Sequence record: OZ035760.1
Length of the DNA stretch: 64,000 bases
Direction: 5' to 3' (one strand)
Source of the DNA: Tequatrovirus NIC06P2
The position numbers and the translations under genes are program-made. Of the stretch, positions 41,686 to 49,070 are shown in pieces; the stretch's first letter is position 1; the number at the start of each line of letters is the position of its first letter. The notes below the pieces were generated by a model. The model saw only the letters and a list, made by a program, of their open reading frames with translations, was not told the origin of the DNA and searched no databases.

Positions 41686-42776
41686 CGTTATGTTCGATTG
41701 AGCTCGCTAATTCTCAACCCGTTCTCTTATGAACTGCTACATATTACTATGCAGACCAGACTATATCACAATCCCAGAGGGATTCTCCCCATTTCGAGTC
41801 GCTTGACCCTACGTCCGAAGACTAGTCGTTGAACCTTGCTTTGCAATTGTCGCCGTGCCATCGTTTATATGTTGATGGTGATAAATCTTTCTTATCACAA
41901 TATGGACAATTCAATTGAATTCTATTTGGATTTAATTTACATCTGTCATTATGTTTTAGATAAAATCCAGGACCTTTACCAATGTGACCGCAGAAATCAC
42001 ATGTGATTTCTTTTTGTGCAGGATGGGTCCCGTTCTTAACCATTTCTAATGTTTTTGCTGATGTTCTTTTCTTATGGTCTTCTGACAAGAAATGATGTGA
42101 ACCGTCATTTACCCGTTTTGATTGAGTTTCTGACTGCATTTTACCACCGCAAAATACATGAGTACCTTCTTTTATAGCTGCAATATTGCGTTCTTTAACT
42201 TTTGCAATATGCTCAGCTTGTTGAAAATTATGTATACCTAATGCAACTCTATTTAAATTAGATTTACGCTGTATTTCACCGTCTAAAAGATGAAATGTAC
42301 CATTTTCTATCTTAGATTTAATAGAGGCAATATTTTTAGCTCGTACTTCAGGGATATTAAAAATCTGGATTTCTCTAGATTTTGCGGCTTTAGAAGCTAA
42401 TTCAGAAATTTCTTCAGGAGAATATTTCATTCTAAGCTTTATAGCATGACAAGCCTGGTAATCTTTTTGAGCTAAATGTATATCATAATGTTCCTGTATA
42501 GAAAGGCACATCAAATTATCTAAATCATTATTTTCACGGTTACCGTCTTTATGATGGATTTCGTATGTTCTTCCATCAGAATCTTTAGGTATAGGTCCGT
42601 TAGCATCTATCCAAATTTTTCTATAGTTCAATTGTGCATCCTCTTAAAAGTATAATCATATTTATATTATACTAATTAAAGGTGCAAGCAAAACCTTGGC
42701 TGCTAGTTTTCCTATAAAGGACTTTCCAGCAATTAAAGGAGTTTTCGATAAACGTTACCGTTTAAAGGCGCATTTT
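41686..42776 (-). mobile_element. Group I self-splicing intron in nrdB (about 1091 nt) carrying I-TevIII
   Basis: Exon 1 frame stops immediately after ...YVSFA; conserved group I elements R (TTCAACGACTAGTC) and S (GATATAGTC) on minus strand near 41759-41833; boundaries inferred to within 1-2 nt. Confidence 0.85.
41822..42631 (-). CDS. I-TevIII: I-TevIII HNH homing endonuclease, full length
   Basis: 269 aa, HNH motif EIHHKDGNRENNDLDNLMCLS...EHYDIH plus C-terminal Cys/His zinc-finger region. Confidence 0.92.
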   Translation of the reverse strand: MNYRKIWIDANGPIPKDSDGRTYEIHHKDGNRENNDLDNLMCLSIQEHYDIHLAQKDYQACHAIKLRMKYSPEEISELASKAAKSREIQIFNIPEVRAKNIASIKSKIENGTFHLLDGEIQRKSNLNRVALGIHNFQQAEHIAKVKERNIAAIKEGTHVFCGGKMQSETQSKRVNDGSHHFLSEDHKKRTSAKTLEMVKNGTHPAQKEITCDFCGHIGKGPGFYLKHNDRCKLNPNRIQLNCPYCDKKDLSPSTYKRWHGDNCKARFND

Positions 42777-43452
42777 ACGCAAAAGATACATAAAAACGAA
42801 TAGCTTCTAAGGCATTAATAACGTGTAAACAGAGGTAAAGAGACTTCATTAAAGCACGTTTAGCTTCGGCTTCTTGTTTAATAGCTCGGTTTAAACGAAA
42901 GTCGGCATCAGGAGATTCTTTAGCTAGTTCTACAAATTCTTTAGCATTTTCCCATTCACGGGTTTTAACCAAGACATCATCATAATAGCGACCGATAGAT
43001 TCAGCACGTTTCATGATAGCTTCATCTAATACAATCTCATCAAATACCTTCGATGGATCAGTATAAAGATTTCGCATGATATGAGTATATGAACGACTGT
43101 GAATAGTTTCACTAAAAGTCCACGTAGCAACCCATGTATCAAGACTTGGGTCTGAAATTAATGACATAAGTACAGCAGACGGTGCACGACCCTGAATGCT
43201 ATCTAGAAGTGATTGATACTTCAGGTTATTAGTAAAAATATCCTGCTGATATTGAGGAAGCTTATTAAATTGTGCAGCATCCATCATCAAGTTTACTTCT
43301 TCAGGACGCCAGAAAAATGATAAGGACTTCTCTGTAAGTTCTTCAAATACTCGATGCCGTTGAATATCATAACGCGCAATACCAAGACCTGAACCAAAAA
43401 ACATAGGTTCTTTTAAAACATCAACTGGATTTGTATTAAAAACTGTGCTCAT
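42777..43452 (-). CDS. nrdB: Ribonucleotide reductase small subunit NrdB, exon 1
   Basis: 225 codons recognised as T4 NrdB N-terminus (MSTVFNTNPVDVL...). Confidence 0.9.
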
Positions 43453-43503
43453 AAATTTTCCACTTAGTTAATAGTTGGTGACTCGTCCGTGAGTCAAATT
43501 ATA

Positions 43504-45768
43504 TCATAATTTACAGGATGAACAATCTTCAGCTTTTGGAGTTTCTATTTCATAATCATCAGTACCAGAACCATCGCGGGTATTATGATAATAGAAATTT
43601 TTTCCGCCAAAATACCAGAAATACAAAAGGTCATCAATCATTATTGACATTGGAACCTTTCCTTTTGGAAAAATCTGCGGGTCATAGTATGTATTCGCTG
43701 AAGCTGATTGACATACCCATTTCAGCATAATAGCTACCTGCGTAAGATAAGGTTTATTACCTTTCTTAGCTAATTTCCACGTATAATCATAGAGGTCTAT
43801 GTTATGTTCAATATTGGGCACGACTTGATTAAAGGAACCCTCTTTTGATTCTTTAACAGAGACTGGTCCACGTGGAGGCTCGATACCGTTTGTACTGTTA
43901 GAAACTTGGGAAGATGACTCACATGGCATAAGTGCTGATAATGTGCTATTACGGATGCCAAAGAGCTTAAGGTCTTCCCGCAACGCCGACCAGTCACAAA
44001 CGTATTTTGGAGCTGCGATTTGGTCAATCTTTTTATTGTACCAGTCGATAGGTAATTCGCCTCGAGACCAACGAGTGTCTGAATAATATTCGCAAGGTCC
44101 TTTTTCTTTGGCGAGCTTAATGGATGCTTTAATGAGTCCATACTGTAATCTCTCAAATAGTTCATGTGTTAAATCGTTAGCATCTTCATAAGAAGCAAAG
44201 TTACTTGCTAGCCAAGCTGCATAGTTGGTAACACCTACACCGAGGTTACGACGCTTTTTAGCTTTTTCTGCTTCAGGAACTGGATATCCTTGGTAATCCA
44301 ACAGATTATCAAGAGCACGAACTTGAACTTCTGCCAATTCATTAATTTTATCTTGGTCTTGCCAGTCAAAATTATCTAATACGAATGCAGAAAGAGTACA
44401 CAATCCAATTTCAGCATCAGGGCTATTCACATCATTTGTTGGAATAGCAATTTCACAACACAAGTTACTCTGACGAATAGGTGCCTTTTCACGAATAAAC
44501 GGAGTATAGTTATTCGTATTATCAATGAACTGTACATAAATCCTTGCTGTTCCTGATCGTTCAGTCATGAGCAATTCAAATAGTTCACGAGCTTTAATAC
44601 GCTTTTTACGAATATTAGGGTCTTTTTCTGCTGCTTCGTATAATTCACGGAAACGGTCTTGGTCTTTAAAATAAGAATAATAAAGCTCTCCACCCATTTC
44701 ATGTGGACTGAACAAAGTAATGTAATCGTTCTTTCCGAATCGTTCCATCATCAAATCATTCAGCTGAACACCATAATCCATATGACGAATGCGGTTTTCT
44801 TCTACGCCTTTGTTATTTTTCAAAACGAGAAGATTTTCAACTTCCAAATGCCAAATAGGATAATAAGCAGTAGCAGCGCCGCCACGAATTCCACCCTGTG
44901 AGCATGATTTAACAGCAGTCTGAAAATGTTTCCAAAAAGGAATAACACCAGTATGGCGTACTTCACCCATGCCAATCTTAGAACCTTCGGCACGAATCAT
45001 ACCAACGTTAATACCAATTCCAGCGCGTTTAGAGATATATTCAACAATTGAAGCGGAAGCCTTATTGATAGACTTCAATGAATCTCCTGCCTCAATAACA
45101 ACACATGAACTAAACTGCCGAGTCGGAGTACGGCAACCAGCCATAATAGGAGTTGGCAATGAAATCTGTCGAGTAGATACTGCTTCATAAAAACGAATAA
45201 CATGTTTTAATCTATCAACAGGTTCATCTTGATGCAATGCCATTCCAATAGTCATAAATGCAAACTGTGGAGTTTCATAAATTTGACCAGTGGTTTTATC
45301 TTTAACTAGATATTTTTCTTTTAATTGCATCGCCCCGGAATAAGTAAATTCCATATCCCGCTCGTGCTTAATTTTTGATTCTAAAAATGTAATTTCTTCT
45401 GCTGAATATTTTGACAATAATTCAGGGTCGTATTTACCTTCATTTACACAGTAAGAAATATGGTCAATAAATGAACGTGGTTCATACTGCCCATAAACAT
45501 GCTTACGAAGAGCAAACATTAAACAACGTGCAGCTACATATTGATAATCAGGCTCTTCAACCGAAATAGAATTCGCAGCGGCCTTAATGACAATAGTCTG
45601 AATATCATCAGTTGTCATTCCATCACGGAGATAAGATTTAATATTTTCATATAATTCATAAGGATCTACTGATGTTCCTTCAGCTGCCCAAGATAAAACT
45701 TTAATAATTTTTTGTGGGTCAAAGCTCTGAGAAACACCACTACTTTTGATAACATTAATTAATTGCAT
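43504..45768 (-). CDS. nrdA: Ribonucleotide reductase large subunit NrdA
   Basis: 754 aa, same length as T4 NrdA, C-terminal redox cysteines CSSCKL. Confidence 0.96.
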   Translation of the reverse strand: MQLINVIKSSGVSQSFDPQKIIKVLSWAAEGTSVDPYELYENIKSYLRDGMTTDDIQTIVIKAAANSISVEEPDYQYVAARCLMFALRKHVYGQYEPRSFIDHISYCVNEGKYDPELLSKYSAEEITFLESKIKHERDMEFTYSGAMQLKEKYLVKDKTTGQIYETPQFAFMTIGMALHQDEPVDRLKHVIRFYEAVSTRQISLPTPIMAGCRTPTRQFSSCVVIEAGDSLKSINKASASIVEYISKRAGIGINVGMIRAEGSKIGMGEVRHTGVIPFWKHFQTAVKSCSQGGIRGGAATAYYPIWHLEVENLLVLKNNKGVEENRIRHMDYGVQLNDLMMERFGKNDYITLFSPHEMGGELYYSYFKDQDRFRELYEAAEKDPNIRKKRIKARELFELLMTERSGTARIYVQFIDNTNNYTPFIREKAPIRQSNLCCEIAIPTNDVNSPDAEIGLCTLSAFVLDNFDWQDQDKINELAEVQVRALDNLLDYQGYPVPEAEKAKKRRNLGVGVTNYAAWLASNFASYEDANDLTHELFERLQYGLIKASIKLAKEKGPCEYYSDTRWSRGELPIDWYNKKIDQIAAPKYVCDWSALREDLKLFGIRNSTLSALMPCESSSQVSNSTNGIEPPRGPVSVKESKEGSFNQVVPNIEHNIDLYDYTWKLAKKGNKPYLTQVAIMLKWVCQSASANTYYDPQIFPKGKVPMSIMIDDLLYFWYFGGKNFYYHNTRDGSGTDDYEIETPKAEDCSSCKL

Positions 45769-46085
45769 AAGTCCTCAACTTGAAAATCGTCTTTAAACAA
45801 TCGGTTAACTATATGAGCTATTATATCACCATGACACGGCTTTGGTTTACATGTGCATCCTAGCCTCATTCCACGTAAAGGCTCTAAATGTGCTTTAGTT
45901 ATTTCTCCGGATTTAATTCGACGTATAAAATCTTTTTTGAATAATTCAATGGCAGCCTCCCGGCTGCCAGCATCTTTACCGACGTAATTTCCCCAAAATG
46001 TACCGCGGTGAATATTAACATCAAAGTCGGATTTGTATTTATTCACTACCCGGCATAGACGGCCCACGCTGGAATAATTCGTCAT
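45759..46085 (-). CDS. Hypothetical protein (nrdA.1-like), CxC...C...H motif
   Basis: 108-aa ORF, synteny. Confidence 0.55.
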
Positions 46086-46302
46086 ATTGTTTTTCCGTTA
46101 ATACAGTAATATCGTAGTAACAGTCAGAAGAAGTTTTAACTGTGGAAATTTTATTGTCAAAATATTCACGAGTCATTTTATGAGTATAGTATTTTTTACC
46201 ATAAATGGTAATAGGCTGTTCTGGTCCTGGAACTTCTAACTCGCTTGGGTTAGGAAGTGTAAAAAGAACTACACCAGAAGTATCTTTAAATCGTAAAATC
46301 AT
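46039..46302 (-). CDS. Hypothetical protein (nrdA.2-like)
   Basis: 87-aa ORF, synteny. Confidence 0.5.
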
Positions 46303-47159
46303 ATTGCCATTTTCCCTTTAATTGCTGGATGCGATTCATAATTTTCAAGGATAAAATCTTTCGGTTTCATGTATTCAGTTAACCAGTAAAGCTGTGTTTC
46401 GGTGTCACAATTTCCAAACTCTATAGGCCAGTCAATTTTAAGTTCGCACAGTTCTTTAGGCTCACGACGTAAAATTTCTTTACATTGCTCAGTATGATTC
46501 ATATAGATGTGAGTATTACCACCAGAAAATATCAAATCTCCTGGGATAAGATTACACATCTTAGCCACAATATGCGTCAAGGCAGCGTACGAGGCAATGT
46601 TGAATGGCAAGCCCAAGAAAACATCTACACTTCTTTGGTACCATTGTAAATCAAGATAACCATTACGCACATTAAACTGATAGAACATATGACAGGGCGG
46701 TAATGCCATTTGATTGATTTCAGCTGGATTCCATGCTGAAACGATTTGACGTCGATCAGTTGGTAATTTTTTAATACGATCAATAGTTTCAACTAATTGA
46801 TCCACACCACCGAAATCACGCCATTGTTTACCGTATATAGGACCAAGTTCACCACTATGATATCCTAGGTCTTTAGCCTGGTTTTCATAGTTATCGTCCC
46901 AAATAGTTTTACCTTGAATAAGACTACCATGAGTGCGAAGACGTAAATCATTAACATTGGTAGAACCGGAAATAAACCATAGAAGCTCAGCAATGCATGC
47001 ATTCCAGGCGAGCTTTTTAGTTGTTACTGCAGGAAAACCTTTGGTTAAATCCCAACGCAATTTAGTACCGAACAAAGCAATTGTTCCTGTGCCCGTTCGA
47101 TCATCGGTTTCATAGCCATTTTCAAAAATGTCTTTAATTAAATCTTGGTATTGTTTCAT
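46299..47159 (-). CDS. td: Thymidylate synthase, uninterrupted (no intron)
   Basis: 286 aa continuous ORF recognised as T4 thymidylate synthase. Confidence 0.95.
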
Positions 47160-47203
47160 TTAGTACCTTATATAAATTATAATACATTTTATGAAGCTAA
47201 TAA

Positions 47204-47551
47204 TTAATACGGTTTAGCATCAAATTTTCTCTCAATTTCAGGCGTGAAATATAATTCTTTACCGCGTTTGGAAAAACGACCAATAATATGATAATTATTC
47301 TCATCAAACGTGATATTACCAATATCCATAGCTTTCAACCAAATATCGATATTTCTATCCAGCTTTATGTCAAAATTCCAATACGGAGAACTATTACCGA
47401 AAATACTGCAAGCGGATTCAGTGAAACAACTGCTATAAATCTTGTCTTTAGGAACTACTAATTGATAGACGCCTTTAATAAACTGAGGACCCTGCCATTT
47501 TGGTTGTTTCGCGTCTTTTTCTAATAGAATAGGGTAATAATTAAAATTCAT
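47204..47551 (-). CDS. Hypothetical protein inserted between frd and td
   Basis: 115-aa ORF, no recognisable motif; occupies the junction where T4 frd and td overlap. Confidence 0.55.
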   Translation of the reverse strand: MNFNYYPILLEKDAKQPKWQGPQFIKGVYQLVVPKDKIYSSCFTESACSIFGNSSPYWNFDIKLDRNIDIWLKAMDIGNITFDENNYHIIGRFSKRGKELYFTPEIERKFDAKPY

Positions 47552-47570
47552 ATTTCCGCCACGCGTTATT

Positions 47571-48397
<827 letters not shown>

Positions 48398-48407
48398 ATT
48401 ATTTTCC

Positions 48408-48650
48408 TTAAACAGACTTTTTCACAATTTTCCAATCAGCTTTAAACTGTTCAACGTCAGAATGGTAAATCCAGAATCCTGCGCTTTCTCCATCCTCATA
48501 AAGAGGGCATCCATCACATTCACCTTCCCATCCCATACCACGTAAAAGATGTTCAGCTTTTTCAACAAGTTCAGAATCTTTACCGATGATATTAAAATAC
48601 CATTTACCTCTAACTTCTGAATCTTTGATGCTTTGGCGTTGTAATCTCAT
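48408..48650 (-). CDS. Hypothetical protein (frd.2-like)
   Basis: 80-aa ORF with early promoter upstream. Confidence 0.55.
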   Translation of the reverse strand: MRLQRQSIKDSEVRGKWYFNIIGKDSELVEKAEHLLRGMGWEGECDGCPLYEDGESAGFWIYHSDVEQFKADWKIVKKSV

Positions 48651-48669
48651 TTTATTCTCCTTAGTTGAT

Positions 48670-48705
48670 AGGGTAATAGTATCACACTACTACCCTGATG
48701 TAAAC
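48670..48705 (-). promoter_or_regulatory. Early promoter (GTTTAC, 17 bp, TACTAT) with inverted repeat around -10
   Basis: Minus strand GTTTAC-atcagggtagtagtgtga-TACTAT; arms agggta/taccct. Confidence 0.5.
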
Positions 48706-49070
48706 TACTTTTTGAAAGTTTTTCGCAAAAGTTCAATGATTTCGTCTACATTGTTTTCATCTACAATGCAGTGAATTTTTGTTACGCCATAAACCTGGTC
48801 TTTGACTTCATCTTCTTCAGAAGTCGGTTCTTTATACTCACGAAAACAATGAAATTCGTCTTCACAAACGTTAAAGTAAAAATGCTTTCCATTTGCACAT
48901 TCAATGTGTTTTATTGCTCTAAATCCATCAGCAAAGAAAGCTTCTTTAACTTCAAACCACCCGCCATTTTCTTCAATAATTTTAACTATTGATGAATTAG
49001 AACGTGGGCGATAATTAATAAATGTATCAATAAGTCTTGGAACAAGTTCATACTTTTTGCCAATATACAT
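48705..49070 (-). CDS. Hypothetical protein (frd.3-like)
   Basis: 121-aa ORF. Confidence 0.55.
   Translation of the reverse strand: MYIGKKYELVPRLIDTFINYRPRSNSSIVKIIEENGGWFEVKEAFFADGFRAIKHIECANGKHFYFNVCEDEFHCFREYKEPTSEEDEVKDQVYGVTKIHCIVDENNVDEIIELLRKTFKK

Follow-up and report, generated by a model that had tools for sequence, protein, structure and literature searches.

The dihydrofolate reductase (frd) and thymidylate synthase (td) genes of Tequatrovirus NIC06P2 are separated by a 115-codon gene, referred to here as X, which is very probably an old, vertically inherited member of the frd-td operon and not a recent arrival. This corrects a T4-centred view of the region, as the textbook overlap of frd and td would be the exception, resulting from a 415-bp deletion between 9-bp repeats. 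The best overall explanation combines this vertical inheritance with a binding-module function for the X protein and is, in our judgement, a likely one, but its functional part taken by itself is tentative and may well be wrong.

Organisation of the frd-td junction in NIC06P2

The analysis covered a 64,000-nt stretch of sequence record OZ035760.1, referred to below as the window. All of the features that define the junction lie on the minus strand and are given here in the direction of transcription, with the source of each in brackets.

47571 to 48152, minus strand: frd, dihydrofolate reductase, 193 aa, the upstream gene of the operon (ORF list; annotation in matching records)
47569 to 47577, minus strand: TAAATGAAA, upstream copy of a 9-bp direct repeat, at the end of frd (window compared with T4 sequence)
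47552 to 47570, minus strand: frd-X spacer aataacgcgtggcggaaat, 19 nt, with a weak GGCGGA/GGA ribosome-binding site (sequence)
47204 to 47551, minus strand: gene X, 115 aa, start MNFNYYPILLEKDAKQPKWQGPQF, PHROG 1928, function unknown (ORF list, PHROGs)
47160 to 47203, minus strand: X-td spacer, 44 nt (spacer comparison)
within 47160 to 47203, minus strand: central ~30 nt of the X-td spacer, TTAGCTTCATAAAATGTATTATAATTTAT, an indel (spacer comparison)
47192 to 47198, minus strand: AGCTTCA, MotA-box-like, with one mismatch (at T) to TGCTTYA (pattern match)
47176 to 47181, minus strand: TATAAT, a perfect -10 hexamer, 10 nt past the MotA-like box (sequence)
47166 to 47169, minus strand: AAGG, the td Shine-Dalgarno sequence, 6 nt ahead of the ATG (sequence)
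47154 to 47162, minus strand: TAAATGAAA, downstream copy of the 9-bp direct repeat, at the start of td (window compared with T4 sequence)
46299 to 47159, minus strand: td, thymidylate synthase, 286 aa, uninterrupted and without a group I intron (ORF list; annotation in matching records)

Gene X as a conserved coding gene

Pairwise dN/dS was calculated for the window ORF and six Tequatrovirus orthologues, and values of 0.00-0.07 were obtained in all pairs except one (FriedrichMiescher versus RB68), which rests on 2 synonymous and 2 non-synonymous differences. The NIC06P2 gene differs from that of T2 by 11 synonymous and 0 non-synonymous changes, from that of JoYop by 21 and 1, and from that of NHEP29 by 31 and 9, respectively. 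For td, dN/dS is 0.02-0.10, so that X is at least equally constrained. Judged by these substitution patterns, X is a real gene under strong purifying selection, and it is evidently made as a 115-aa single-domain protein.

These results agree with much of what an earlier note on this DNA had described. Its coordinates for the 115-aa ORF, the end of frd and the start of td are all right according to the six-frame ORF list and the minus-strand sequence, and the string TGTATTATAAT that it singled out does occur on the minus strand, at 47186..47176. The suggestion that the ORF is coding, and more than a chance reading frame, is borne out by the low dN/dS and by tblastn matches in 580 phage records. 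Similarly, the absence of a recognisable motif was reproduced in Pfam, NCBIfam and PADLOC scans of X, which gave nothing, even at E values up to 10 in the case of Pfam.

Other kinds of feature were also sought in the region. No Rfam family came near its gathering score in the X region, and folding of the 44-nt X-td spacer was no better than that of shuffled sequences (z = 0.11). Profile HMMs of X and Y, a related gene described below, matched X alone among all six-frame ORFs of the window, with no paralogue elsewhere. A literature search on X under the names RB32ORF229c, phrog_1928 and frd-td junction gene found no paper or experiment.

Distribution and synteny across T4-like phages

The 580 phage records with X homologues fall into two groups by identity. 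In 362 records the tblastn match has at least 90% identity, and about 356-362 Tequatrovirus records carry X alone at the junction, whereas in the remaining 218 the homologues are less than 60% identical. The X protein is 100% identical in T2 and RB14, T6 also carries the gene, and the RB14 feature that overlaps it is labelled RB32ORF229c. The position between frd and td is common to T2, T6, RB14 and RB32. Across 20 kb the window is at best 96.9% identical in DNA to another Tequatrovirus, and there is no difference of substance at X.

Eight loci from other genera were fetched for comparison, namely those of Kanagawavirus (Entb_45, PEi26), Jiaodavirus (ValerieMcCarty04), Roskildevirus (Cronus), Moonvirus (Moon), Winklervirus (CHI14), Gelderlandvirus (STML-198) and an unclassified Klebsiella phage. 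An X homologue lies directly after frd in seven of the eight. Identity is 26-48% for the homologues found after frd in Kanagawavirus, Jiaodavirus, Moonvirus, Winklervirus and Gelderlandvirus and one gene further in Roskildevirus, where Cronus has a Y-like paralogue between frd and X. According to their annotation, the most divergent family members (in Providencia, Morganella and Proteus phages and in Yersinia phage MHG19) still adjoin frd or td, and the family occupies the same locus in every lineage examined, at identities down to 17%. The position between frd and td was confirmed in the window, in T2, in seven of the eight other-genus loci and in a 32-kb metagenomic contig, L018. This contig has the order frd-X(115)-Y(113)-Z(69)-td, with an X homologue of 63% identity, and Entb_45 has the same gene order.

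The genes at the junction are also closely packed. Annotation tables give frd/X overlaps of 1-23 nt in eight lineages (five of the fetched loci together with JoYop, NHEP29 and contig L018) and X/Y, Y/Z and Z/td overlaps of 4-17 nt. Read together, gene order and overlaps establish X as an evidently translationally coupled member of a frd-(X-Y-Z)-td operon. The state of the junction nevertheless varies among close relatives, which may have X, Z or nothing at this position; X is absent from T4 and apparently from Mosigvirus too.

A separate observation concerns the DNA around the gene. Phages that fall to 59-86% identity farther out agree at 94-100% over a block at 47030..47740 of the window, which comprises X, ~170 nt at the end of frd and ~130 nt at the start of td. 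In several pairs the figures are 94-97% for the block and 82-86% for td beyond it. In NHEP29, for example, a frd gene of 59.5% DNA identity adjoins an X of 88% identity. The frd-X-td junction seems, from these alignments, to have been exchanged as a unit, and such a conserved block is also what ordinary T-even mosaic recombination gives.

Origin of the T4 junction

In the T4 record the frd stop overlaps the td start as ATGA, and the earlier note's account of T4 was therefore right in that X is not the standard T4 arrangement. At the junction T4 reads ...gtatataaatgaaacaatacc, i.e. one copy of TAAATGAAA, and the frd end, this single copy and the td start are the same as in the window. The T4 sequence ...cagtatataaatgaaacaatacc corresponds to that of the window minus the 415 bp between the two TAAATGAAA copies, and a 1231-nt query is matched in T4 over 814-816 bp. 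The two copies are 415 bp apart, and recombination between them yields exactly the T4 junction. The T4 td used for comparison is made up of exon 1, I-TevI and exon 2. Records with a T4-type junction number a few dozen at most, by rough estimate.

Because X orthologues are common across Tequatrovirus and lie beside frd in other genera, T4 would represent the derived, deleted state, and X would be ancestral, vertically inherited and non-essential. With X distributed across genera in this way, a deletion in the T4 lineage is far more parsimonious. Formally, the 9-bp repeat is also what a target-site duplication would leave, and it is the phylogenetic distribution alone that argues for deletion.

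It follows that the earlier note's picture of an extra ORF inserted between frd and td has to be reversed, since T2 and RB14 have the identical protein, T6 also has the gene, it occurs in ~360 records, and orthologues stand beside frd in other genera. The note had left it to a comparison of T-even junctions whether the gene is rare or widespread; it is widespread, and T4 is the outlier. X is dispensable to the extent that T4 and apparently Mosigvirus do without it.

As a sequence feature X is already known, being a hypothetical protein in hundreds of genomes and ordinary in kind: T2 has the identical protein, and the arrangement is common, with T4 as the exception. No evidence for a new kind of system was found in this analysis. 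Most T4 relatives hold one to three small genes at the frd-td junction, and T2 and T6 (with X) compared with T4 (without it) offer a natural knockout comparison. The tight constraint on X and its confidently predicted fold without a close solved relative add to its value for follow-up.

The companion genes Y and Z

Profile comparison by hhalign identifies Y as a paralogue of X, with a probability of 99.3% and E = 9e-21. Phages of Kanagawavirus, Moonvirus, Winklervirus and Gelderlandvirus and related ones have it as the second gene after frd, in one operon with X; it is absent from the window. Both proteins carry the motifs LLxxDxxQKKW, HG(I/V)Y, GN and GRFxKxG and have the same predicted domain, but Y differs from X by an insertion of 25-35 residues (PTIxEYKRNPxKY) after the conserved Trp.

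The sequence at 47197..47220 of the window (minus strand), which covers the final 17 nt of X and 7 nt beyond it, is ATGCTAAACCGTATTAATTATTAG (MLNRINY*). It corresponds to the beginning of Y (MLNLIKI...) in contig L018, i.e. the Y start codon and four codons. The stretch may be a relic of a deleted Y or a by-product of the coding constraint on X, and because it lies inside the coding 3' end of X the Y-like codons are not independent evidence. No relics of Y or Z other than this start codon and four codons were found when the window spacer was compared with contig L018.

Z encodes 68-69 aa (MSNKLKVKDVP...) and replaces X at the junction in ~135 records from Tequatrovirus and Dhakavirus. Across genera its identity is 69-81% (loci L011:1917-2123, L002:2673-2879, L009:2648-2854 and L018:4670-4879), and it has homologues of 40-43% identity in Phapecoctavirus (phAPEC8-like) phages. 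Z has no match in Pfam.

Protein family and predicted fold of X

X matches PHROG 1928 with E = 8.4e-36, residues 4-111 aligning with profile positions 2-125 of 126, and all 44 aligned family members match the same PHROG. When 1.84 billion cluster representatives were searched exhaustively with HMMER, only 42 clusters matched, of which 39 are full-length, single-domain proteins of 95-139 aa and the other three are short fragments. In the alignment of 44 members W19, G91, K95 and G97 are invariant, L9, G27, Y29, F93 and F102 are nearly invariant, and the shared motifs are LLxxDxxQKKW, HG(I/V)Y, GN and IGRFxKxG.

Sequence comparison with characterised proteins was uninformative. A Pfam scan of the 44 members gave 12 scattered one-off weak matches with E above 0.01 and no consistent family, two family profiles run against the PDB gave no solved relative below E = 0.016 (those at that level being unrelated), and no catalytic motif of any known family was found in X.

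AlphaFold2 models of X reached a pLDDT of 80.8 with 10 sequences and a pLDDT of 91.3 with a pTM of 0.84 with 44 sequences. Both models share one layout, in the order b-b-b-(b)-helix-b-b, with strands at 6-12, 27-34, 38-40, 48-50 and 62-64, then at 80-82, 86-96 and 99-104, and a helix at 68-77. The confident prediction for X is thus a small beta-barrel of OB-like topology, in which a single helix separates strands 3 and 4. A Foldseek search of the model against the PDB gave nothing below E = 0.66, and a structure search of BFVD returned only uncharacterised proteins of T4-like phages, Aeromonas phages included. As neither search gave a characterised match, no structural relative of the fold can be demonstrated; among known domains, OB-fold nucleic-acid-binding ones (HIN, Teb1/RPA, S1, PriB) would offer a near comparison.

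Possible functions of X

Several conserved aromatic and basic residues would lie at the ligand-binding positions of an OB-fold in the model, namely K18 and W19 in the loop after strand 1, Y29 in strand 2, and R92, F93 and K95 in the last hairpin. Judged only by their place in the secondary structure, they may cluster on one face. X may therefore be pictured, with low confidence, as a non-enzymatic binding module. It would be made in step with DHFR and thymidylate synthase from one early/middle polycistronic mRNA, and could act on or with the nucleotide-precursor machinery, for instance as a tether that joins Frd and Td to one another or anchors them to nucleic acid or the replication complex. 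On this view X would be neither a nuclease nor a mobile element.

The linkage of X to frd and td is unbroken across deep divergence, which suggests that X has an auxiliary part to play alongside the nucleotide-precursor enzymes. Since dTMP is made without X in T4 and Mosigvirus, any role with Frd or Td must be auxiliary. The linkage could also be historical and not functional.

The main rival holds that X is an anti-defence or host-takeover accessory, a small early inhibitor of a host immunity or housekeeping factor, which phages encountering that factor would retain and T4 would have lost. Many T-even counter-defence proteins are small early proteins, as X would be. The protein is small, single-domain and phage-restricted, without enzymatic motifs; close relatives have X, Z or nothing at one junction; and T4 does without it. 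An anti-defence role fits the strict synteny and the very low dN/dS less well, however. In every lineage of Tevenvirinae examined, X sits in a metabolic operon with translational coupling and not in a variable island, the dN/dS of 0.00-0.07 in all pairs but one gives no sign of diversifying selection, and in most lineages the gene has no promoter of its own. PADLOC, which covers defence proteins only, gave no match to X. We regard this explanation as unlikely, and the anti-defence cargo proposed in the earlier note sits poorly with such strict operon synteny and very strong purifying selection.

A bolder version of the binding-module idea is that PHROG 1928, including both X and Y, is a new small beta-barrel family that couples DHFR with thymidylate synthase, or both of them to gp32-coated DNA, or else that it forms an unrecognised class of counter-defence protein. 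Coupling of the enzymes by X would be the separate-subunit counterpart to protozoan DHFR-TS fusions. If true, coupling or counter-defence would explain why X has stayed beside frd and td in nearly all T-even-type lineages except T4 and Mosigvirus. This proposal is improbable on present evidence.

The X-td spacer and the promoter question

Another proposal concerns the 44-nt spacer and not the protein: in T2-type phages it would contain a MotA-dependent middle promoter that gives td, nrdA and nrdB a start of their own. MotA middle promoters have the consensus (a/t)(a/t)(a/t)TGCTT(t/c)A near -30, placed 11-13 bp upstream of a TAnnnT -10 element. In the window, ATTAGCTTCA at 47201..47192 fits six of the seven core positions of the MotA box, and is followed by TATAAT at 10 nt or by TAATTT at 12 nt. 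A perfect TATAAT with a six-of-seven box at near-canonical spacing would favour such a promoter, and MotA-type patterns are enriched in the window (TGCTTYA, 8 versus 3.1 expected; AGCTTYA, 10 versus 2.7 expected). Furthermore, T2-type phages carry the promoter-like element as a discrete 30-nt indel. The spacer has the same 44-nt length and near-identical sequence in T2, T6, RB14 and RB32 as in the window, and it is identical over all 44 positions in T2, RB68, KMB39, JE01 and FriedrichMiescher.

Several details weigh against this proposal. The mismatch in the MotA box hits the TGCTT core, and the spacing of 10 nt to the -10 falls short of the 11-13 of the consensus. Transcription would be predicted to start 6-8 nt past TATAAT, at 47170-47168, on the td Shine-Dalgarno sequence, leaving a leader of ~10 nt. 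A sigma-70 scan of 47160..47203 reported no site, TATAAT having gone unreported because there is no -35. The TG at 47186-47185 is 3 nt from TATAAT, not 1, and for this reason the element is not a canonical extended -10. Moreover, JoYop and NHEP29 lack the indel and keep X and td with spacers of 13-15 nt. The case for td having its own promoter, as the earlier note proposed, is consequently weak, with no -35, a non-canonical TG spacing and a 30-nt indel missing in JoYop and NHEP29. A MotA-dependent start is rather improbable, and would possibly be a lineage-specific middle promoter, not a general property of X.

The homing-endonuclease label

Some GenBank records (those of the BASEL phages and of ValerieMcCarty04) name the product of X "putative homing endonuclease". 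The passages of the BASEL methods that deal with annotation place it within a comparative-genomics setup, and no motif-based criterion is stated there for the label. X does resemble T4 segG, segF and mobE in that it lies between conserved genes, is polymorphic among T-even phages and is flanked by a locally homogenised tract; it is unlike them in having no nuclease motif or fold, half the size, a fixed position across genera and translational coupling.

That X is a free-standing homing endonuclease, cutting X-less junctions and copied in by repair, can hardly be right: besides the annotation, it would account for a presence that is polymorphic between two conserved genes, as with segG or mobE, and for X with ~170 nt of frd and ~130 nt of td being more conserved than the outer flanks, like a co-conversion tract, but none of the 44 family members matches a nuclease Pfam family (GIY-YIG, HNH, LAGLIDADG), hhalign of the family against I-TevI gives a probability of 1%, the invariant residues are W, G, K and G with no conserved His, Cys or acidic pair, the Seg and Mob proteins of T4 are about twice as large, no nuclease is among the structural matches to the model, the BASEL label has no motif-based criterion in the passages cited above, and homing genes are sporadic in distribution, just the opposite of a fixed position down to 17% identity with tandem paralogues.

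Individual nuclease classes were also considered. With respect to GIY-YIG, residues 27-29 of X read G(I/V)Y, and neither YIG nor conserved catalytic residues follow. No HNH Pfam match was obtained for any of the 44 members, whereas the HNH_3 domain of a 269-aa ORF elsewhere in the window was easily detected. The distribution is likewise not of the homing-gene type, with X at the same locus in every lineage examined.

Neighbouring nucleotide-metabolism genes

Elsewhere in the window, nrdB is apparently interrupted (41822..43452, minus strand). The ORF at 42775..43452 (minus strand) matches only the N-terminal half of the profile of the ribonucleotide reductase (RNR) small chain, and it is followed by the 269-aa ORF at 41822..42631 (minus strand), which is intact and contains the HNH_3 domain. 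Its length is that of full-length I-TevIII of phage RB3. A scan at Rfam gathering thresholds reported no group I intron at nrdB. On the basis of these ORFs, nrdB seems to carry an intron with an intact endonuclease while td is intronless. Between nrdA (43504..45768) and the start of nrdB there are only ~51 nt (window 43453..43503), which leaves no room for a free-standing HNH gene of the mobE type. In T4, mobE is described as lying between nrdA and nrdB (PMC2790892).

The operon is flanked by small genes at 45759..46302 and 48152..49070 (minus strand), which fall into families that have names but are uncharacterised, namely DUF4326 (nrdA.1-like), DUF5496, DUF5417 (frd.1-like) and FRD2. The 81-aa ORF at 48152..48397, directly upstream of frd, had no Pfam match at E values up to 0.001. 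Within td itself, a 60-nt patch at ~46910..46969 is 62% identical to T2, JE01 and JoYop, while the neighbouring 60-nt windows are 77-98% identical. By this comparison, the patch is apparently a local hypervariable or mosaic segment inside an essential enzyme gene.
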